IMG/VR virus record: IMGVR_UViG_2534681759_000007
Origin: a virus
Taxonomy: Duplodnaviria; Heunggongvirae; Uroviricota; Caudoviricetes
DNA: 20,997 nt
Reading direction: 5' to 3' (one strand)
Shown here piece after piece: positions 2,006 to 15,649 of the stretch. The first letter of the stretch is position 1; each line of letters opens with the position of its first letter. Under the pieces are notes generated by a model, which did not search any database, was not told where the DNA came from, and worked only from the letters and a program-made list of their open reading frames with translations. The position numbers and the translations under genes are program-made.

Positions 2006-2320
2006 TCACCGTTCCTTAAAGACGCCGTTTAACATGCCGATCGCCAGGCTTAAATGAGTCGGTGTGAATCCCATCAGCGTTACCGTTTCGCGGTGCTTCT
2101 TTAGTACGCTACGGCAAATGTCATCGACGTTTTTATCCGGAAACTGCTGTCTGGCTTTTTTGATTTCAGAATTAGCCTGACGGGCAATGCTGCGAAGGGC
2201 GTTTTCCTGCTGAGGTGTCATTGAACAAGTCCCATGTCGGCAAGCATAAGCACACAGAATATGAAGCCCGCTGCCAGAAAAATGCATTCCGTGGTTGTCA
2301 TGCAGCCTCCCGACGGGCAA
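2006..2320 (-). CDS. Hypothetical phage protein (start uncertain)
   Basis: 104-codon open frame beginning with TTG at 2320 (AAGGA upstream); in-frame ATGs at 2287 and 2221 are alternative starts. Co-directional with neighbours, no family recognised. Confidence 0.4.
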   Translation of the reverse strand: MPVGRLHDNHGMHFSGSGLHILCAYACRHGTCSMTPQQENALRSIARQANSEIKKARQQFPDKNVDDICRSVLKKHRETVTLMGFTPTHLSLAIGMLNGVFKER

Positions 2321-2855
2321 GAATCCTTGAGCCGAACGCCATCAACTCTCCACGATCAACAGTCGTAAAGTGGCAGTGTGTACGGGGGTATGGGTGCCAG
2401 ATAATGAGCATCGAGCCTTTATTATTTCCACTGACGGGTTTCTCAGTGAGTGGGTTAATAAATGCCAGTCGTCCTGCCGTGATGAATCTGACCTCACTGG
2501 CGGTTTGTATCGCTTCATGAAACCATCCGACAGATGTGTCAGCAGGCAATAACATTACACATCCCACACTACTGAATTTGTTTTCAGTGGCTGCCTTTTT
2601 CACAAAAGGGGAAATATTGCTGTATGGTGGATTCAACCAGACATAACCAGAGGCATATCCCATTGCTTCAGGCCATGAAGTGGTTAATGTGTTCTGCTCC
2701 TGTGAGATAAAAAGCCGACATAGTCGGTTTTTTTCGCTGGCGGCAGCATCAAGTTGAAAAACGAACTCTGCATTAAGCGCAGCAAAAATCTCTGGTGGTG
2801 TGCGCCAGCTGTCGCGATGTTCGGCAGGAGTATTGCTTCCGGTGAAATCAGTCAT
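2298..2855 (-). CDS. Phage DNA N6-adenine methyltransferase (Dam-like)
   Basis: 185-aa ORF containing the NPPY motif (YVWLNPPYSN) typical of amino-methyltransferase motif IV; ATG at 2855. Confidence 0.75.
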   Translation of the reverse strand: MTDFTGSNTPAEHRDSWRTPPEIFAALNAEFVFQLDAAASEKNRLCRLFISQEQNTLTTSWPEAMGYASGYVWLNPPYSNISPFVKKAATENKFSSVGCVMLLPADTSVGWFHEAIQTASEVRFITAGRLAFINPLTEKPVSGNNKGSMLIIWHPYPRTHCHFTTVDRGELMAFGSRILARREAA

Positions 2856-3009
2856 ACAGCCCCCGTTTATTATTTATCTCCTCAGCCAGCCGCTGTGCTT
2901 TCAGGGGATTTCGGATAACAGAAAGGCCGGGAAATACCCAGCCTCGCTTTGTAACGGAGTAGACGAAAGTGATCGTGCCTACCCGGATATTATCGTGAGG
3001 ATGCTTCAT
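2848..3009 (-). CDS. Small hypothetical protein (53 aa) coupled between exo and the methyltransferase
   Basis: My own translation of the minus strand: [53 protein letters not shown]. Its ATG overlaps the exo stop and its TGA overlaps the methyltransferase ATG (ATGACTGA arrangement). Too short to appear in the supplied ORF track. Confidence 0.3.
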
Positions 3010-4468: not shown

Positions 4469-4473
4469 TCGTT

Positions 4474-4770: not shown

Positions 4771-4845
4771 GGCTGAACTCCTGAAAATGGCTGTGAAAAA
4801 ATCGCCCGCGGAATGCCAGGCTGATTCGGAAAACAGGAAAGGGGA

Positions 4846-4911
4846 TTAGTGATTCAGACCGTTGCCGCGTCCGTCGAGAAAAACTTCCACGAGCAAGTCA
4901 CGGGTATAAGT
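4846..4911 (-). pseudogene. kil: 3' remnant of kil homologue, separated from its 5' part by the IS100 insertion
   Basis: Joining 6866-7095 to 4846-4911 across one copy of the TAAGT duplication restores a continuous frame ending ...IERTYTRDLLVEVFLDGRGNGLNH-stop. The stop (cac taa) sits at the position I remember for the lambda kil stop relative to gam, about 75 nt upstream of the gam ATG. Confidence 0.55.
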
Positions 4912-4918
4912 TGTCAAT

Positions 4919-6865
<1,947 letters not shown>

Positions 6866-7488: not shown

Positions 7489-8352
7489 TCATTTCGCATC
7501 TACAATAAATAACCTGTTTATCTGGCCTTTTTTAACAGTAGCCTTTGCGGTTATAGTGAATACTGCAGATGGATCACCTTTGGTTGATATATATGCACTA
7601 AGAGCTCTAATATACGGGTTATTCTTCTTTCCTGCAGCTGGATCGCTAATTTCAGCAGTGATTCTCTTTTTTGAGTCATCACCATCTAAAATTATTTTAG
7701 CTGTCATATTTTGTGCATCAAATTCTGTAAGAAAAGCACGATACTCACGAAGACCGAGAACTTCATCATCATCAAGCCTATCAATTTCAGCTTTATCTCT
7801 CTCGTTAACTTTTAGAAGGCAGCCGTCAACATTTGTTGCAACACTTATCTGATCGCAAGTATTACCAATAGGTGATACTGCCTGCCTTACAGAGGGGCGA
7901 AGCTCTACAGCCATTCGGTCAATCAAAGAGATCAACTTATCAATGGTTCCAGCATCCTTGTTTCCTAGTGCCTCTATGGCCTTTTCAAGTGACTGCTGCA
8001 AAGCTTTCATTTCATCTTTCTTGTTAGAATTTCTCGCAAAAATATATTGTAGTATTGCGCCAAGTATAGTTGCGGCGATCCCCGAGAACAACTGGTTCTG
8101 AGTGGCGAAGTTAAGAACTGCTTCAAGAGTAAAGCAGTTAGCTTTTGCTTCGCGTGCGTAAACCTTAACTTCCTGATAATTAATGTATTTACTATATTTT
8201 TGTGTAACAGAGAAAGAAGCTGCTGTTGAGAGAACTTTAGAAAAACCCTTTAGGGATTCTCCTAGGCAGTTCAAATCTATTTCATGATTTAAAGCATCTT
8301 TTCCGTCATACCTAAGAGAGATTTTTATATCCTGTAAAGCGTCACAATCCAT
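7489..8352 (-). CDS. Hypothetical protein in the rexAB-equivalent slot downstream of cI; candidate superinfection-exclusion/abortive-infection protein
   Basis: 287-aa ORF, ATG at 8352, 66 nt after the cI stop and co-oriented with it; visibly AT-rich relative to flanking phage genes; one central hydrophobic segment ([18 protein letters not shown]); no family recognised. Confidence 0.6.
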
Positions 8353-8418: not shown

Positions 8419-9108
8419 TTATCCATGTTTCCTGTACGTCTGGGGCATGCTCCCAATAACCTTACCGAAGATGAACACCCGGTTCATCTCGTCTTTCTCG
8501 ATCGGGTCCCACGGTGAGTAGCTCTTGTTATCAGAGATAACCAGCAGCTTATCCTTCATCATTTGCAGGCGCTTTACATGGGCTGTGTCGTCGTACAGAA
8601 ACGCATAGATACCATCACCGTCGAAAGATTTAACCGTGATATCAACGAACAGCAGATCACCTGGTTCGATCGTTCCTGACATGCTGTCACCACGCACGTT
8701 AATGATGCGGATATTTTCCGCCTTCCTACCATCGAACATGTGACGAGCATCGTCAAACGAGTACTCAACCGAGCGTAGAACTTCTACAAACTCACGGTTG
8801 ATGACTCCCGGCCCAGCACTGACTTCTATATCAAGAACGTCAATCTTGAAGTATTTGGAATGGCTGACAGTTGATTGTATTGGTTGCACTGTACTGTCTG
8901 ACATATTTCCAACGCCAGAAGATAACCATTCTGCGCGCACACCCAAAGCGTTCGCGATCTCCACGATTTTAGTTGTTTGATTAGCTTTCCCTGTTTCGAT
9001 TTTCTGAATAGCAGCCTGGCTAACCCCGACCAAATCCCCAAGCGCCTTTTGTGTAAGGCCTCGCGCTAATCTGGCTTCTTTAAGTCTTTCTGAGAGTGTT
9101 GTTTTCAT
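8419..9108 (-). CDS. cI: CI-like prophage repressor (N-terminal HTH plus C-terminal S24 LexA-like peptidase domain)
   Basis: Start taken at MKTTLSERLKEARLARGLTQKALGDLVGVSQAAIQKIE (ATG 9108), an XRE-type HTH. C-terminal GDSMSGTIEPGD and HVKRL supply the Ser/Lys dyad of autocleaving repressors. Divergent from cro across an operator-containing spacer. Confidence 0.85.
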   Translation of the reverse strand: MKTTLSERLKEARLARGLTQKALGDLVGVSQAAIQKIETGKANQTTKIVEIANALGVRAEWLSSGVGNMSDSTVQPIQSTVSHSKYFKIDVLDIEVSAGPGVINREFVEVLRSVEYSFDDARHMFDGRKAENIRIINVRGDSMSGTIEPGDLLFVDITVKSFDGDGIYAFLYDDTAHVKRLQMMKDKLLVISDNKSYSPWDPIEKDEMNRVFIFGKVIGSMPQTYRKHG

Positions 9109-9114
9109 AGTCCA

Positions 9115-9180
9115 AATGTACAACCAAGGTTTTATTCCATCAAACGAAAATGGTTGTTGACTAAAAACAACCATAGTTTT
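9115..9180. promoter_or_regulatory. Putative OR operator / pRM-pR region
   Basis: Perfect inverted repeat TGGTTGTT-N7-AACAACCA at 9151-9173 plus additional GGTTGT half-sites in the 104-bp cI-cro spacer. Confidence 0.55.
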
Positions 9181-9212
9181 AATCTTGATTCAAATTAACC
9201 ACGGAGGTTGTT

Positions 9213-9443
9213 ATGAACCCAGCTATCAAAACAGCGATCAATATCGTTGGTTCACAAAAGAAACTGGGCGCTGCTTGCGAAGTTTCACAGCAGGCCGTCT
9301 ATAAGTGGCTTCACAACAAAGCAAAGGTATCCCCTGAACATGTCGGCAGCATTGTTACGGCTACTGGTGGAGTAGTGAAGGCATACCAGATTCGCCCGGA
9401 TCTTCCGAAGTTGTTTCCACACACCGAAAAGAACGCAGCTTAA
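9213..9443 (+). CDS. cro: Cro-like repressor (YdaS-type HTH)
   Basis: 76-aa ORF with GGAGG Shine-Dalgarno sequence, divergent from cI; motif KKLGAACEVSQQAVYKWL is a Cro/YdaS-type HTH. Confidence 0.8.
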   Translation: MNPAIKTAINIVGSQKKLGAACEVSQQAVYKWLHNKAKVSPEHVGSIVTATGGVVKAYQIRPDLPKLFPHTEKNAA

Positions 9444-9512
9444 ATTTCCATTTCACGCTCTTTAACAATAAGCAATCAACTTAACAGTCAATTCAAACTA
9501 AAGGAGTCAATT

Positions 9513-10052
9513 ATGCAACCACTTACATACCAACAGACTAGCGGATTTAGCCCGACTGCGGTGATAAATCGTTCTCAAACAAAACAGGTGCCAGACCACG
9601 AAAAAATCCGTGATGCCGTCCGCGCCTGGTCGGCTGTAGATAATCAGGATGTCGTTGCCGCACTCATTGTGAATGAGTATCGGGAGCAGGGCGACGGCAC
9701 CATCGATTTCCCTGATGATGTCAGCCGTGCACGCCAGAAGCTGTTCCGCTTCCTCGATAACAAATTCGATTCTGAAAAATACCGAAATAACGTGCGTGAA
9801 CTGACCCCGGCAATTCTGGCGGTACTACCGCTGGAATATCGCGGTTACCTGGTTGAGCAGGATAGCTTCATGACTCGGCTGGCTGAAATGGAAAAGGAAC
9901 TCAGTGAGGCAAAACAGGCTGTCATTCTCAACGCACCACGCCACCAGAAACTGAAGGAAATTAGTGAAGGTATTGTGTCGATGTTTCGTGTGGACCCGGA
10001 TCTGGCTGGTCCATTGATGGCGATGGTTACCACCATGTTGGGGGCAATATGA
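9513..10052 (+). CDS. YdaT-family protein in the cII position
   Basis: 179-aa ORF with AAGGAG Shine-Dalgarno sequence. The segment RELTPAILAVLPLEYRGYL resembles the conserved core I remember from Rac-prophage YdaT proteins. It occupies the cII slot between cro and O. Confidence 0.55.
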   Translation: MQPLTYQQTSGFSPTAVINRSQTKQVPDHEKIRDAVRAWSAVDNQDVVAALIVNEYREQGDGTIDFPDDVSRARQKLFRFLDNKFDSEKYRNNVRELTPAILAVLPLEYRGYLVEQDSFMTRLAEMEKELSEAKQAVILNAPRHQKLKEISEGIVSMFRVDPDLAGPLMAMVTTMLGAI

Positions 10053-10138
10053 CAGGCTCAGAAATGGCGAAAGCCGGTCTGCGGGAACAGAGCCGACTTT
10101 CAGGCGCAAATCGTAACGCACTCATTGCGGGAGGAATT

Positions 10139-11068
10139 ATGGCAAACACTGCTGAGATATTCAATTTTCCAGTGCCGGATGTGGCACAAAAGGAGCCGCG
10201 CGTGGCAGATCTCGATGATGGTTATACGCGCATTGCAAATGAGTTGCTGGAAGCTGTGATGCTGGCCGGATTAACACAGCACCAGCTTCTGGTCTTCCTG
10301 GCTGTCATGCGCAAAACATATGGCTTTAATAAAAAACTGGATTGGGTGAGCAACGAGCAACTTTCCGAATTGACCGGGATATTGCCGCACAAGTGTTCTG
10401 CTGCAAAAAGCGTTCTGGTAAAGCGTGGGATTCTTATTCAGAGCGGGCGGAATACCGGCATTAATAATGTGGTCAGTGAATGGTCAACATTACCCGAATC
10501 AGGTAAGAAAAATAAAGTTTACCTGAAAGAGGTAAATTTACCTGAATCAGGTAAAAAAAGTTTACCCAAATCAGGTAAAGACGTTTACCCGAATCAGGTA
10601 AACACAAAAGACAAACTAACAAAAGACAATATAAAACCTTATTCGTCCGAGAATTCTGGCGAATCCTCTGACCAGCCAGAAAACGACCTTCCTGTGGTGA
10701 AACCGGATGCTGCGATTCAGAGCGGCAGCAAGTGGGGGACAGCAGAAGACCTGACCGCCGCAGAGTGGATGTTTGACATGGTGAAGACCATCGCGCCATC
10801 AGCCAGAAAACCGAATTTTGCAGGGTGGGCTAACGATATCCGCCTGATGCGTGAACGTGACGGACGTAACCACCGCGACATGTGCGTGCTGTTCCGCTGG
10901 GCATGCCAGGACAACTTCTGGTCCGGTAACGTGCTAAGTCCGGCCAAACTCCGCGACAAGTGGACCCAGCTCGAAATCAACCGTAACAAGCAACAGGCAG
11001 GCGTGACAGCCAGCAAACCAAAACTCGACCTGACAAACACAGACTGGATTTACGGGGTTGATCTATGA
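10139..11068 (+). CDS. O: Replication initiator O (lambda O family)
   Basis: Start chosen at MANTAEIFNFPV (ATG 10139, GGGAGG upstream), which aligns with the lambda O N-terminus MTNTAKILNF...VADLDDGY. An upstream in-frame ATG at 10049 overlaps the previous stop and is an alternative start. Contains iterons inside the coding sequence as in lambda O. Confidence 0.85.
   Translation: MANTAEIFNFPVPDVAQKEPRVADLDDGYTRIANELLEAVMLAGLTQHQLLVFLAVMRKTYGFNKKLDWVSNEQLSELTGILPHKCSAAKSVLVKRGILIQSGRNTGINNVVSEWSTLPESGKKNKVYLKEVNLPESGKKSLPKSGKDVYPNQVNTKDKLTKDNIKPYSSENSGESSDQPENDLPVVKPDAAIQSGSKWGTAEDLTAAEWMFDMVKTIAPSARKPNFAGWANDIRLMRERDGRNHRDMCVLFRWACQDNFWSGNVLSPAKLRDKWTQLEINRNKQQAGVTASKPKLDLTNTDWIYGVDL
10490..10602. 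repeat. Replication origin iterons (5 copies, one degenerate, about 23-bp spacing) inside the O gene
   Basis: Copies of TTTACC[C/T][G/A]AATCAGGTAAA at about 10490, 10518 (degenerate), 10538, 10560 and 10583, each internally palindromic (TACCTGA/TCAGGTA), followed by an A-rich stretch to about 10640. This is the lambda-type ori layout. Confidence 0.8.
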
Positions 11069-11787
11069 AAAACATCGCCGCACAGATGATTAACTTTGAC
11101 CGTGAGCAGATGCGTCGGATCGCCAACAACATGCCGGAACAGTACGACGAAAAGCCGCAGGTACAGCAGGTAGCGCAGATTATCAATGGTGTGTTCAGCC
11201 AGTTACTGGCAACTTTCCCGGCGAGCCTGGCTAACCGGGACCAGAACGAACTGAACGAAATCCGCCGCCAGTGGGTGCTGGCTTTCCGGGAAAACGGGAT
11301 CGCCACAATGGAACAGGTTAACGCAGGAATGCGCGTAGCCCGTCGGCAGAATCGACCATTTCTGCCATCACCCGGGCAGTTTGTTGCATGGTGCCGGGAA
11401 GAAGCATCCGTTACCGCCGGGCTGCCAAACGTCAGCGAGCTGGTTGATATGGTTTACGAGTATTGCCGGAAGCGTGGCCTGTATCCGGACGCAGAGTCTT
11501 ATCCATGGAAATCAAACGCGCACTACTGGTTGGTTACCAACCTGTACCAGAATATGCGGGCCAATGCGTTGACTGACTCGGAATTACGGCGCAAGGCTGC
11601 CGATGAACTTGCCCATATGACTGCGAGAATTAACCGTGGTGAAGCGATTCCCGAGCCAGTTAAACAGCTTCCGGTTATTGGTGGTAAGCCGCTATCCCGT
11701 ATACAAGGATTGGCAAAGTTGGCTGAGATTCGCGAGAAGCACGGACTGAGAAGACGTAAACAATTAACGGGAGTGAAGCTAACCTGA
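11065..11787 (+). CDS. P: Replication protein P (DnaB helicase loader, lambda P family)
   Basis: 240-aa ORF recognised as highly similar to lambda P (MKNIAAQM.NFDREQMRRIANNMPEQYDEKPQVQQVAQIINGVFSQLLATF...); the last ~20 residues differ from my recollection of lambda P. Start overlaps the O stop (ATGA). Confidence 0.92.
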   Translation: MKNIAAQMINFDREQMRRIANNMPEQYDEKPQVQQVAQIINGVFSQLLATFPASLANRDQNELNEIRRQWVLAFRENGIATMEQVNAGMRVARRQNRPFLPSPGQFVAWCREEASVTAGLPNVSELVDMVYEYCRKRGLYPDAESYPWKSNAHYWLVTNLYQNMRANALTDSELRRKAADELAHMTARINRGEAIPEPVKQLPVIGGKPLSRIQGLAKLAEIREKHGLRRRKQLTGVKLT

Positions 11788-12132
11788 ACTACCTTCAAGA
11801 CACATAAAACCTTTCCCCCAGAAAATATAGTTCATCCTGCGGCATCAACCAGACCGTAAACATTCTGACAAAGCAGGGCGATCTGGTCGATGTCAGCAAT
11901 ATCTAGCGAACGATTCACTACCGATTGGTAACCGAAGAGGAAATCTCTTGGCACAAAAGCACCAATCAGATTTTCGATGATGGCCCCCAAGCCCGGTGAT
12001 GACGCGAATTTTACTAGCCTACGAGAGGAACGGAGCATGAAGACAGCACCGAGCACAGTGTAACTATTCGATTTTTTTCTGTTTGATTTTTCGACATACT
12101 ACATTATATAGCTCGATATCCTTTCATTTTAC

Positions 12133-13326
12133 TTATTCAATTAACGGTACTTGTTTGTTGCAGAATACTAATATTGCATCTTGAGTAAGTTTTTTATGCA
12201 TATGCTTTAGCGGCTCAATGTTAGTCTCGTAACCGAAAGTAGCGAAAAGAGTTGGTTCTATAATGAAATTTTCTTCATAAGCTTTTAGATCAAATGCTCT
12301 CTTTGCAATTAATCTAACTGCTTTCTTTCTAATGCGTGAATTATATCTATTCTCTATGCTAAGTTTAGCCATGTTTTCATCGATGTTGTTTTTTTGTTTT
12401 TTTAGTATAATTTGAATGTGATCATCATCAATTTGGCCATCTCTATATATATAATCAATGTCATAATTAAAATCAAAAAGCTGAGTGTCATTTACACCTT
12501 CAAGAAAAGGATTTGAAAATGGGCTCATGATCGGATCGAGTGATTTTTTATAAGTACTATTGCATTTAGTGCAGCTAGGAATTAAGTTAAATAAACTAAA
12601 GGAGATCAACGGATATTTGTACTTAGGTATGAAATGATCAAATGCTGGCCTGTAGCTAGTACCTGTATGGTCTTCTACTTGTTCAATTTCTTCACTGTTG
12701 CAATATGGGCATATGCTAATGTCTAAAAAACTGTTCAATTGATACGCTGTTTCTCTATCAATAAGTGAGTATTTAAATATTTCAGAAATATTTTTAACCC
12801 ATGATGGAAATAACTTAATGGTATTTTCCTTTAAAGGACCACCATTCTTGATACTTATAAGATTAAGAATCTTATCTCTTAAACTAGATAATTTTTGTGG
12901 TGAGAAATGTGTATTTAATATATCCTCAAGTATTAGGCTTTGTGTAGTTTGAGAGAAAGATGTGATTATTTTGATGGCATGTGCTAGTTCATTATAAACT
13001 ATTTTTTTGTTTTCTTTTGTTTTTAAAGGTAATTGTAGGTTTGTTAATGGTTGTAAATTTAAGTGCCTTAAAAAATAATCAGGAGAATAGTACTCACACA
13101 CAATTGGGTGTTTGTTGTATATTTTGATGATTATATTTTTTAATCGTTTGGGTTTTGAAAAAACTAATTTTCTGATAGTTTTTTTGTTGATTGTATTTAG
13201 AAACTCTACTTCATCGGGAGTAATGTTCAGTAACTTCCTCTGCTTCACGCGTTTATTAACTTTGCTTACTATTTTAGAAAAGGATATTTTTACATCAACA
13301 TTGAAGTCTTTGTTTATTTTTATCAT
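12133..13326 (-). CDS. HNH-family nuclease (PtuB-like), 397 aa, second gene of the AT-rich two-gene island
   Basis: HNH/His-Me finger signature at residues ~206-256 (nt ~12559-12711): CPYC...EDH...FDHFIPK...NLIPSCTKCN. Protein is Lys/Asn/Ile-rich and the DNA is strongly AT-rich; start is 9 nt downstream of the ATPase stop. Confidence 0.8.
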   Translation of the reverse strand: MIKINKDFNVDVKISFSKIVSKVNKRVKQRKLLNITPDEVEFLNTINKKTIRKLVFSKPKRLKNIIIKIYNKHPIVCEYYSPDYFLRHLNLQPLTNLQLPLKTKENKKIVYNELAHAIKIITSFSQTTQSLILEDILNTHFSPQKLSSLRDKILNLISIKNGGPLKENTIKLFPSWVKNISEIFKYSLIDRETAYQLNSFLDISICPYCNSEEIEQVEDHTGTSYRPAFDHFIPKYKYPLISFSLFNLIPSCTKCNSTYKKSLDPIMSPFSNPFLEGVNDTQLFDFNYDIDYIYRDGQIDDDHIQIILKKQKNNIDENMAKLSIENRYNSRIRKKAVRLIAKRAFDLKAYEENFIIEPTLFATFGYETNIEPLKHMHKKLTQDAILVFCNKQVPLIE

Positions 13327-13335
13327 TTTTTTTAC

Positions 13336-15123
13336 TCATTTCTCAAAAGAATCTGTTTTATCATTGTTTTTGTTTAACTTCAGATCAATAAGATTTATGA
13401 GAAGTTTATTTTTAATTTGTGATAGTATGGTTTTTTGATGTTTATTTAAATTACCGTCATCTGAGTTTTTTATTATTGAGTTTAGATAATTATGTGCGTG
13501 CTGTCCTATTGTAGCATCAATAAAAAAACCATTTATATATAATTCTGATATGGTTGCTCCGAAACCAAACTCTACTTTCTTAGTATAGGTTCCTTGATTA
13601 TGATCTCTTTCAAGATATATTATATCTGATGGCAAAAAATCACTTGCGAGTATAGGGGAGTGAGTTGTAAATACTAATTGAATATTTTTACTTTGTTTAT
13701 ATCTTAATGTTAAATCTATAATTTCTGAAAAAATAACTCGTTGCCATTCAGGGTGTAGATATAAATCACACTCATCTAATAATATTATAATATTTTTGCT
13801 GTTGCTATGTTCTATAGAATCATAAAGTTGATTGAAAAGGTTTAATTTTGCAAACTCTCCTGAACTAAGTGAATCCCAACCATACTTAAATCGCGATGAT
13901 ACGCCATTTGGTAACCTATCAACTAATCTTATTAACTCCATAATCTGCTTTGGTTCTTCAACTGTGAAAGATAAACTATCAACTGGGTCTCTTGCTGTGT
14001 TTTCTAATATATCAGCTATATTACCTATAATGTCGGAGATATGTTCAGATAACATTTCTATTTTTGACTGAAATTTAACATTAACGTTAAATTCATCTAA
14101 AGTCTCTAATATAGTTTTTGCTGGATCTTTTTCTTCAAGATACGCGCGACACAAGCAAAATAAATAAACAGTCTCACATATGTCTTTAGGGATTTTTGAT
14201 GTCTTGAGTAAATGCCATGTTATTGCAGGCAAAAGCATCAAGTAAATTATTTTGTGATATGAAAAGGTTGCGAGGAAATTTAATGATCTTTCTTTGTTAA
14301 AAATAATGCTAATAATAAAATCTTCATCGTAATCTATCCCATGATTGAGTATATCCACAAGTGAAATACCTAAAGAATCTAAATCACGTTCAATATATCT
14401 AGGGAGTTTATTGTTTTTAATTCTATCATTCAACGTATCAAAAAAGTATTCAATAGCTCCAAAAAGTCCTTTGTCACCAATATCATTGTTTTTTATAATA
14501 GAATTTATTTTATATACTGGTGAGTTTTCTATTTCAAATTGAAATTTAGTATTAAGTCTTGATAAATTGTCTTTAGCCCATGAACTGTGGTCTGAAAATG
14601 AAATTAATTGCTTGAGTAATTTCTTATTGCGTGTTTTACTGCCTTGCAAAAAATATGACAGTGATAAATCTTTAGAAATCGAATCGTTTTTTTTCTTTTT
14701 TTGTCCAACTAACATACTTTTGAGGTCGATTGTGTTATTTATCTTTATTAGATTGATTTTGTTTCTTCTAAAAAAATGTTCATTATTATCAATTAGTTCC
14801 GTTTGCATTTTGGATAATATTACAGGAGGTTTGCAATTGCTTGTGATAATTATAAGTTTATCATTTTCATTCCAGATGCTATAACCGCTACCTTCAAAAT
14901 CGTAAATAAAGCTACTAATGAAATCTAAAATTGATGACTTTCCAACACCATTTTTCCCTAAAATTAATGTACAGGGAATATTGCTATAATAGTCACGACT
15001 TAAATCTTTCTTAGCAATTGTAAGGACGTTACCTTTATGGCTAAAGGTAAATTTACTTGAGGTGGGGAGGGACAGCTTATTTAAACCTTTATAATTGTGG
15101 ATATAAGTGTATATTAGTTCCAT
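13336..15123 (-). CDS. ABC/SMC-like ATPase (AAA_15/AAA_21-type, PtuA-like), 595 aa, first gene of the two-gene island
   Basis: Walker A GKNGVGKSS (nt ~14935-14961), signature-like LSSGE (13855-13869), Walker B IIILLDECD (~13765-13791) and H-loop FTTHSP (~13654-13671), with a ~350-aa helical insert between Walker A and the signature. Strongly AT-rich. Confidence 0.8.
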   Translation of the reverse strand: MELIYTYIHNYKGLNKLSLPTSSKFTFSHKGNVLTIAKKDLSRDYYSNIPCTLILGKNGVGKSSILDFISSFIYDFEGSGYSIWNENDKLIIITSNCKPPVILSKMQTELIDNNEHFFRRNKINLIKINNTIDLKSMLVGQKKKKNDSISKDLSLSYFLQGSKTRNKKLLKQLISFSDHSSWAKDNLSRLNTKFQFEIENSPVYKINSIIKNNDIGDKGLFGAIEYFFDTLNDRIKNNKLPRYIERDLDSLGISLVDILNHGIDYDEDFIISIIFNKERSLNFLATFSYHKIIYLMLLPAITWHLLKTSKIPKDICETVYLFCLCRAYLEEKDPAKTILETLDEFNVNVKFQSKIEMLSEHISDIIGNIADILENTARDPVDSLSFTVEEPKQIMELIRLVDRLPNGVSSRFKYGWDSLSSGEFAKLNLFNQLYDSIEHSNSKNIIILLDECDLYLHPEWQRVIFSEIIDLTLRYKQSKNIQLVFTTHSPILASDFLPSDIIYLERDHNQGTYTKKVEFGFGATISELYINGFFIDATIGQHAHNYLNSIIKNSDDGNLNKHQKTILSQIKNKLLINLIDLKLNKNNDKTDSFEK

Positions 15124-15547
15124 TATATAACCAATCTCTTAAATATGAAAAAACATAATGGGGTGATAGGCGTATTTGAAAAATACACGCTACCGCCACC
15201 TAGCGTTAAGCTGGGAGTGTTATTTTTATATTTTACCCCAAGTATTTGTTTTATGCAATTGTATCATCACATCTTTTGAAAGTTTGCTTTCTAAATGTAA
15301 TTGTAATTTTAAACGGGTTTAATTGTTTTAAAGTGTTTGGGTGATTTGTTTTTCGAGGTTGCCTTCATAAATTAAGAGATAAAAACGTTGTAATGTATTT
15401 TTATATGAGTGAGCTAATAAATGAAATCTTGATTGAAAATTATAGGTTGGCGGTTACTTAAATTTGATTTTCCAAAATCAGATCGTCATAATTATCGCAT
15501 CGGAGCCTGAACACCTCCGGTGACTTCTGCGCTAAACGGGGACGTTT

Positions 15548-15649
15548 ATGCGCACATACAATCTAAACTCTCTTCTCCCTTCACAGATGCAGAAATGCAC
15601 CTGCGATTCTTTGCATCCAACGTTTGACCTCTGCGGAGGTGAAGCGTGA
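15548..15649 (+). CDS. ylcH: Small DLP12-type protein YlcH-like (33 aa)
   Basis: My own translation: [33 protein letters not shown]; its stop overlaps the GTG start of the next gene. Assigned from memory of the DLP12 gene order, so moderate confidence. Confidence 0.45.

Follow-up and report, generated by a model that had tools for sequence, protein, structure and literature searches.

Introduction

YdaS and YdaT, whose genes lie between the repressor and the replication genes of the Rac prophage, were argued by Jobling in 2018 to be the equivalents of Cro and CII, as they had been by Casjens in 2003 according to the citation given there (PMC5917428). Jurenas and colleagues reported in 2021 that YdaT of prophage CP-933P is non-toxic and activates a PRE-like promoter (PRE933P), and noted its homology to CII of phage phi80 (PMC8630535). 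The YdaT structure published by Prolic-Kalinsek and colleagues in 2023 consists of a POU-like helix-turn-helix (HTH) domain assembled into a tetramer with 222 symmetry, and the operator TTGATT-N6-AATCAA was defined by footprinting (PMC9986795). YdaT thus binds inverted repeats whereas lambda CII recognizes direct repeats, TTGC-N6-TTGC, as a dimer of dimers (PMC9986795). For Rac YdaT, Wons and colleagues showed in 2025 that the protein binds ATGATTCATGAAAATCAA, which spans the start codon of its gene, and gives about 29-fold activation of racR via a reverse promoter, and that the Rac and CP-933P proteins recognize each other's boxes despite only 30% identity (PMC11879457). Here, we analyze a 20,997-nt stretch of Caudoviricetes DNA (IMG/VR record IMGVR_UViG_2534681759_000007; the window, to whose full length all coordinates refer) that encodes a 76-aa YdaS-like protein and a 179-aa YdaT-like protein in the cro and cII slots of a lambdoid immunity region.

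We read this locus, with a probability of roughly 0.8, as the immunity and decision module of a DLP12/phi80-like lambdoid prophage made up of a CI-type repressor, a YdaS-type Cro and a phi80-type CII that would act at two sites, one in the 5' coding region of its own gene (site 1) and one on the promoter upstream of ylcH-ybcN-ninE-rusA-Q (site 2). The CII-like interpretation itself is known from published work and the gene is routinely annotated as cII. A first-pass annotation, made from the letters of this DNA alone, had mentioned such a proposed role without a source, and the role is documented in print (PMC5917428, PMC8630535, PMC9986795, PMC11879457).

The cro-slot and cII-slot proteins

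The two genes are as follows.

9213 to 9443, plus strand: cro-slot gene, YdaS-family HTH protein of 76 aa, contains VSQQAVYKWL
9513 to 10052, plus strand: cII-slot gene for a phi80-type CII (YdaT family) of 179 aa, contains LTPAILAVLPLEYRGYL

The 179-aa gene is preceded by the Shine-Dalgarno (SD) sequence AAGGAG (9500-9505), 7 nt 5' of the ATG, and does occupy the cII position assigned to it in the first-pass annotation, between the cro-like gene and lambda-type O and P genes. The hidden Markov model search that had been proposed as a check of YdaT membership gave a clear match to PF06254 YdaT_toxin (E=2.8e-30; 105 bits for a curated cut-off of 21). Residues 17-179 were in addition matched by PHROG 163, 'CII-like transcriptional activator', with E=4.8e-67. 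A profile of the close subfamily further detected CP-933P YdaT in the PDB (8bt1, E=6.9e-9 over the DNA-binding domain), with the recognition-helix motif QK(I/L)FR(W/F)LD kept between the two proteins. Within this motif, Arg79 (QKLFRFLD) aligns with the arginine of CP-933P QKIFRWLD and is nearly invariant in a 55-sequence alignment. The homologous arginine of Rac YdaT, R57, is required for binding (PMC11879457), and its CP-933P equivalent, Arg60, is the sole fully conserved residue of alpha3 (PMC9986795).

An AlphaFold2 (AF2) model was computed from the 55-sequence alignment, which includes Rac-type YdaT sequences. The model is confident for residues 29-179 (mean predicted local distance difference test (pLDDT) score of 80.4), with residues 1-25 predicted to form a disordered extension; using the close-subfamily alignment alone (31 sequences), pLDDT stayed below 50 over the DNA-binding domain, and it was the addition of Rac-type sequences that raised confidence. 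Predicted helices span residues 29-43, 45-59, 70-82, 88-104, 107-113 and 119-138, corresponding to a helical HTH domain (about 29-113), a long helix (119-138) and an extra C-terminal helical hairpin (143-178). Significant Foldseek matches in the PDB were restricted to the YdaT structures 3c4r and 8bt1 (probability 1.00, TMt 0.70; root-mean-square deviation 3.4 A over 119 columns covering the DNA-binding domain and the long helix), a match that is not fully independent of sequence homology because Rac-type YdaT was part of the alignment. By profile and predicted fold, membership of the 179-aa protein in the YdaT family is confirmed. No other Pfam family matched the protein, no NCBIfam model did, and BLASTP against lambda CII was insignificant (E=4.2). 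It is thus a functional analogue of lambda CII only: the two share the slot and would share a tetrameric HTH architecture and, as we infer, the job of raising repressor synthesis and restraining late functions, but they have no detectable sequence similarity, and neither a cIII homologue nor a pI-type box was seen in the window.

The 76-aa protein belongs to the YdaS family (PF15943 YdaS_toxin, 62.2 bits for a curated cut-off of 30, E=4.1e-17) and is also matched by PHROG 35, 'transcriptional repressor' (E=1.5e-27), more weakly by Pfam P22_Cro (E=8e-5) and, in a phmmer search of the PDB, weakly by the Cro protein 3bd1 (E=7e-4). Its reading frame begins 38 bp from that of the repressor, on the opposite strand. 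The two genes had been described as looking like the Rac ydaS/ydaT pair. The families are indeed the same, as is the order of repressor, ydaS, ydaT and replication genes, and in Rac the YdaT box spans the start of ydaT, near the position of site 1. They are not the Rac pair itself, however, as identity is only 30% for YdaS and 34% over 96 aa for YdaT, RacR lacks an S24 domain and the Rac replication genes ydaU and ydaV are not of O/P type. The pair is better named YdaS-type Cro plus phi80-type CII (YdaT family).

Among characterized proteins, the closest relative of the 179-aa protein is CII of phi80 (65.6% identity over the full length), and the cII products of mEp237 (66.5%) and HK225/HK639 (52%) are further relatives. 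All four phages have the gene annotated as cII, and so do the cultured lambdoid phages PhiR34_1, PhiR26_1, 4A7, Lambda_4C10, Perceval, 1W, 3W and D2, whose genes are 94-98% identical. With phi80, the window shares the MxSLxYQ N-terminal extension of the protein, the slot from a cro-like to an O-like gene and a DUF7946/7947 gene (40A, 62%) between pL and cI; phi80 itself additionally has the oop-like M3 RNA after cII and the palindrome TTGATAAAACACTATCAA upstream of a ybcN-like gene. The two differ in that phi80 cro (gp30) has no significant match to the YdaS-like protein, cI is 24% identical and the replication genes are 42-48% identical, whereas the window has lambda-type Red and P genes. CP-933P YdaT (8bt1; close homologue 3c4r) is of the same Pfam family at about 28% identity and has box-like dyads beside its gene start. 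Compared with it, the window protein adds the disordered N-terminal extension of about 25 residues, whose DNA carries the box of site 1, and the C-terminal hairpin of about 40 residues; CP-933P is a defective prophage with a toxin-antitoxin (TA) module in its immunity region.

The cI/ydaS/ydaT block is present in 2,226 of 5,426 complete E. coli genomes (41%) and in at least 356 IMG/VR contigs. We surveyed the gene context across 45 enterobacterial genomes. The cII-type gene was encoded on the same strand in 43 of 44 diverse loci analyzed, in most of them with a small cro-slot reading frame before it and an O-like gene after it. The cro-slot and repressor genes, in turn, were of several unrelated types across loci sharing this cII type, and many of the cro-slot HTH proteins were not YdaS. 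YdaS-like and cII-like genes are therefore not an obligate pair. That the cII-type gene assorts independently of the genes for immunity specificity argues against a cognate TA system, as a type II TA module would have two co-inherited partners, and fits a CII-like accessory regulator. One divergent cII-slot protein, encoded at 2443-3009 of Enterobacter phage ENT1 (PV358077, locus L134), has no Pfam match and is 26% identical to the window protein; it keeps the N-terminus MHSLAYQQ and its gene carries a YdaT box with 1 mismatch at exactly +48 (2491-2508). This case suggests from sequence that the YdaT-type family reaches past what PF06254 detects.

A dyad within the cII-like gene

9561 to 9578, no strand assigned: degenerate YdaT-box-like dyad GTGATAAATCGTTCTCAA at +49 to +66 of the cII-like gene, codons 17-22 (site 1)

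CII-type direct repeats had been suggested as the sites to look for, an expectation that was wrong since YdaT proteins bind inverted repeats. The direct repeats AGTCAATT in the cro-cII spacer (9486 and 9505) were considered as such sites and dropped, as they are unconserved in other loci. We instead scanned 700 bp around the gene start of 43 non-redundant loci with the published YdaT box. This yielded 11 matches with at most 2 mismatches compared with 1.4 expected, eight of them at one position, +45/+48 of the coding sequence. In the aligned site, TGAT (box positions 2-5) and TCA (positions 15-17) are invariant in 41 of 41 distinct sequences although the residues specified there differ, with M, V or L at codon 17, Q or H at codon 22, and A, S, N, F or D at codon 21, which nonetheless always ends in T. 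For Ile18, 95% of sequences use ATA, a rare codon. Scores of at most 4 mismatches are rare elsewhere in the coding sequence (6 of 1148 sampled windows), and synonymous conservation over codons 2-22 is 0.85 versus 0.56-0.74. Because site 1 falls just upstream of the start of the Rac protein in the alignment, its position is comparable to that of the Rac box. In the window's subfamily the reading frame runs through the site, and the peptide encoded there is predicted to be disordered. Based on these patterns, we propose that site 1 is an autogenous or PRE-type operator.

A promoter scan of 9213-9600 found no leftward sigma-70 PRE-like promoter. Manual inspection of the minus strand gave the -35 candidates TTGACT, TTGAAT and TTGATT (9510-9474), none with a credible -10, and no promoter is claimed. 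Of a PRE-type arrangement, the window shows the positionally conserved dyad at 9561-9578 and a near-perfect box at 15464-15481, and activation of a PRE analogue would be expected from the homologues only.

A dyad on the promoter upstream of ylcH-ybcN

15464 to 15492, plus strand: conserved rightward promoter upstream of ylcH-ybcN-ninE-rusA-Q, with -35 TTGATT at 15464-15469, a 17-bp spacer and -10 CATAAT at 15487-15492 (site 2 lies on it)

Allowing up to 3 mismatches, the canonical box matched 31 times in the whole window compared with about 19 expected, a result that is uninformative by itself without positional or comparative analysis. The best match, TTGATTTTCCAAAATCAG at 15464-15481, has 1 mismatch, and its palindrome overlaps the -35 and the spacer of the ylcH promoter, at roughly -36 to -19. 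The -35 and -10 of this promoter are annotated in the phage 82 record X92588. Other matches were dismissed, the one at 4473 as chance since it is present in lambda itself and those at 12123, 13627 and 17906 as lying inside unrelated genes. A Rac site, CTGATTCGCGTAAATCAG, lies within ydaW without promoter context.

To assess conservation, we used 119 viral contigs recovered by anchoring on a conserved ylcH coding segment. The box is intact at 12 of 12 positions in 80 of these; a further 20 have it with a single mismatch and 18 with two. Computed over 77 distinct sequences, the information content per position is 1.5-2.0 bits in the half-sites, 0.1-0.9 bits in the centre, where 35 different hexamers occur, and about 0.1 bit in the upstream flank; a -10 at 17-bp spacing is found in 70 of the 77. 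At the equivalent place, about 180 bp upstream of a ybcN-family gene, phi80 (38718-38735) and HK225 (39798-39815) have TTGATAAAACACTATCAA, and similar dyads are found in mEp237 and ENT1 where the nin regions begin. DLP12 of E. coli K-12 carries a perfect box at 572,284-572,301 (NC_000913); K-12 has the YdaT of Rac, and DLP12 has no cII of its own.

The right half of the palindrome lies in the spacer, on which RNA polymerase makes no sequence demands, so its conservation is naturally explained by a DNA-binding protein that acts as a dimer. The location at about -36 to -19 would point to repression of transcription toward Q, similar to what is brought about by lambda paQ. Site 2 goes unmentioned in the paper on the Rac YdaT regulon (PMC11879457) and our literature search gave no description of it, so that this conserved second candidate site of the CII-like protein, upstream of the late-gene regulator, seems previously unreported. 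Whether it is the second high-affinity operator of YdaT-family CII in DLP12/phi80/phage-82-type lambdoid phages, through which Q-proximal transcription would be shut off, is in our estimate an evenly balanced question.

The leader downstream of this promoter contains two hairpins, at 15498-15522 and 15529-15553, the second of which includes the SD and ATG (15548) of ylcH. Both are accompanied by compensatory base changes over 51 distinct sequences and match no Rfam family. The first has a conserved CUGAACA loop and was labelled 'possible regulator-binding site' by the annotators of phage 82.

Proposed model and alternative explanations

On infection or induction, pR would transcribe the ydaS-like gene and the cII-like gene, followed by O and P, with the CI-type repressor presumably cleavable in the SOS response and the YdaS-family Cro-like repressor transcribed divergently from it. 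By homology, the 179-aa protein should combine a POU-like HTH domain with an oligomerizing helix and bind TTGAT(T/A)-N6-(A/T)ATCAA inverted repeats. Bound at site 1, it would activate a leftward PRE-like promoter and raise repressor synthesis, in analogy to Rac and CP-933P. Site 2 would be a second and stronger site at which binding represses Q-proximal transcription, leading to the same outcome that lambda CII reaches via paQ. The sequence analysis establishes family and fold, gene order, the mosaic joints and the conservation of both dyads; DNA binding by this protein, activation at site 1, repression at site 2 and an effect on lysogenization are all expectations. Site 2 is possibly also the second DNA held by the two-faced YdaT tetramer, through looping to the 5' box of cII; the partner of the second DNA-binding face was left open in the structural study (PMC9986795).

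Several observations weigh against this two-site model. The window copy of site 1 has 4 mismatches to the TTGATT-N6-AATCAA consensus, and the missing leftward promoter and the partial dependence of the fold match on sequence homology, both described above, have to be added. No pI-type box was found within 2 mismatches near int (1-1700), and no homologue of lambda cIII was seen in the window, as lambda homology stops at 4852. Part of the conservation of site 2 is due to promoter function alone, its left half being the -35 hexamer. Finally, in contigs with at least 7 kb of upstream sequence, 26 had a YdaT-family cII, 3 a lambda-type cII and 8 none that was found (lambda-type CII is about 7 times commoner in the phage database, 348 vs 47 records), yet this association is confounded by physical linkage, the two elements lying 3-7 kb apart, and it is not absolute, since three or four contigs with a lambda-type cII retain the box.

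The alternative that survives best, though we consider it improbable at about the level of a one-in-five chance, is that the dyads are not sites of the 179-aa protein at all: site 1 would reflect coding or translational constraint, and site 2 a -35 element combined with the operator of some other host or prophage factor. Reduced synonymous change is common in 5' coding regions, TTGATT of site 2 doubles as a -35 element, the site persists in a few contigs whose cII is lambda-type, and the perfect DLP12 box of K-12 occurs without a cII gene of its own. However, an invariant T as third base of an otherwise variable codon (A/S/N/F/D) together with ATA in 95% of sequences makes a protein or translation constraint hard to invoke for site 1. 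At site 2, the right half AATCA reaches about 2 bits per position in a spacer that sigma-70 leaves unconstrained while the centre is free to vary, and both sites match the operator footprinted for two YdaT proteins.

Less likely still is a CII-slot protein working solely as repressor or roadblock, by autoregulation at the 5' box or by looping between boxes through two DNA-binding faces, and not as a PRE-type activator. A site in a transcribed coding sequence and another in a core promoter (about -36 to -19) are typical repressor geometries, and our scan gave no PRE-like promoter. The YdaT tetramer can moreover hold two operators, with only one strong site known for CP-933P (PMC9986795). Against this, the equivalent box serves both characterized homologues to activate a leftward promoter (PMC8630535, PMC11879457), and binding to the Rac box left the rightward output of PydaST unchanged (PMC11879457).

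That YdaS and YdaT form a TA or toxin-repressor pair in which the 179-aa protein is mainly a toxin, as the names used by RefSeq ('toxin YdaT domain-containing protein') and Pfam ('Bacterial toxin YdaS/YdaT') and the toxicity of ectopically expressed Rac YdaS/YdaT (PMC5700377, PMC5700373, PMC11879457) imply, is very improbable and has largely been refuted already: the cro-slot partner is not constant, phi80 gp30 being unrelated to the YdaS-like protein, the gene is always found in an immunity region's cII slot, the predicted fold is that of a DNA-binding tetramer, PADLOC gives no match for the pair, CP-933P YdaT is a non-toxic transcription activator (PMC8630535), overproduced lambda CII is toxic as well (PMC5917428) and the TA model was rejected in published work (PMC8630535, PMC5917428).

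Repressor, control regions and flanking genes

The two-site model is set within the following elements of the immunity and replication region.

8419 to 9174, minus strand: CI-type repressor (HTH_3 and Peptidase_S24)
9120 to 9212, no strand assigned: divergent regulatory region, from a repeat search (families D1, I2, I3) and direct reading
9120 to 9133, plus strand: ACAACC-N2-hexamer, first copy
9156 to 9143, minus strand: ACAACC-N2-hexamer, second copy
9167 to 9180, plus strand: ACAACC-N2-hexamer, third copy
9211 to 9198, minus strand: ACAACC-N2-hexamer, fourth copy
9456 to 9467, plus strand: boxA-like CGCTCTTTAACA, just 3' of the cro-like gene in the position of nutR
10139 to 11068, plus strand: O-type replication initiator
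11065 to 11787, plus strand: P helicase loader, lambda-type

The repressor matches Pfam Peptidase_S24 (E=1.5e-18) and HTH_3 (E=6.5e-13) and is only 23% identical to lambda CI. Alignments to PHROG 4/6201 begin at residue 23, and the true start is probably Met23 (ATG 9108-9106, minus strand), giving a protein of 229 aa. The 104-bp divergent region contains four operator-like repeats of the form ACAACC-N2-(G/T-rich hexamer), a palindrome ATGGTTGTT-N7-AACAACCAT at 9150-9174 and a -35-like TTGACT at 9157-9162. From their sequence and arrangement, we infer the ACAACC-type repeats to be operators.

The 12-mer CGCTCTTTAACA is the sole exact copy in the window, and the motif is also found 3' of cro in two other loci (L091 and L093). 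We take it to be boxA, going by the consensus of nut and rrn boxA sequences. Neither a second boxA copy (nutL) nor an intact N-like reading frame was found in the left operon of the window; PhiR34_1 has a 31-aa Arg-rich remnant at 4815-4910 in this context.

A promoter-like sequence with an upstream TG, TTGAAT-17-CATAAT, lies on the minus strand (10164-10136) in the interval from the stop of the cII-like gene to the probable start of O, and is followed by a hairpin (10069-10101) and a short T-run. Lambda has oop and phi80 has M3 RNA at the equivalent position, and the window sequence is dissimilar to them. Tentatively, 10069-10164 (minus strand) might be an oop/M3 counterpart. An Rfam scan of the window gave zero matches.

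The O product matches Phage_rep_O with E=2.2e-34 and is 68.7% identical to lambda O overall, its N-terminal half being non-lambda and its C-terminal half lambda-like. Since PHROG and lambda alignments begin at residue 31, the true start is probably Met31 of the reading frame 10049-11068 (ATG 10139), which would make the apparent ATGA overlap between the cII-like gene and O an artefact of longest-frame calling. P matches Phage_lambda_P with E=7.3e-62. The first-pass annotation had described the flanking exo, bet, gam and P genes as lambda-like, and this is borne out by amino acid identities of 97.8% for Exo, 99.6% for Bet, 96.9% for Gam and 93.5% for P. The module exchange it had proposed is likewise verified by two mosaic joints: in a comparison with lambda, lambda-like DNA ends at 4852 and restarts at 10602 within the O gene, so that everything from the pL-proximal genes through the N-terminal half of O is a non-lambda mosaic block. 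PhiR34_1, which is DLP12-like and integrates by a DLP12-type integrase, is colinear with the rest of the window.

Several segments are not shared with PhiR34_1. It lacks an IS21-family insertion sequence at 4912-6864 (minus-strand istA 5757-6779 and istB 4978-5760), which interrupts a small leftward reading frame between pL and gam-bet-exo-int and probably has a polar effect on the left operon. A DUF7946+DUF7947 protein (7489-8352, minus strand) occupies the rex position between pL and the repressor; it is 62% identical to phi80 40A and also missing from PhiR34_1, with only a weak PADLOC match, to PDC-S42. A Dam-type orphan N6-adenine methyltransferase (2298-2855, minus strand; Pfam Dam E=2e-56) is encoded between orf61-like genes and exo, within an insertion found in neither lambda nor PhiR34_1. 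Further, a low-GC cassette of two genes (12133-13326 and 13336-15123, both on the minus strand) within 11695-15462 substitutes for what in PhiR34_1 is the segment from ren to ybcM. One product is an AAA_15/AAA_21 ATPase with a PADLOC match to PDC-M62A (E=4e-44) that is PtuA-like too, and its partner matches PDC-M62B (E=1.5e-33) with weak likeness to PtuB/HNH; judging by these matches, 12133-15123 is a candidate for an anti-phage system of Septu-like type, carried as a moron.

Conclusion

The module described here is common, and the equivalence of YdaS and YdaT with Cro and CII is published and widely annotated, which makes its presence in the window an ordinary finding of little consequence in itself, although a name that misleads, 'toxin', is still spread by RefSeq and Pfam. 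Potentially new are only the two conserved dyads, above all that on the promoter upstream of ylcH-ybcN. As operator predictions, they concern the commonest YdaT-type CII of E. coli prophages. If the assignment of site 2 is true, cross-talk from Rac YdaT to DLP12 would be predicted in K-12, and the site suggests how this type of CII could restrain late genes without paQ.

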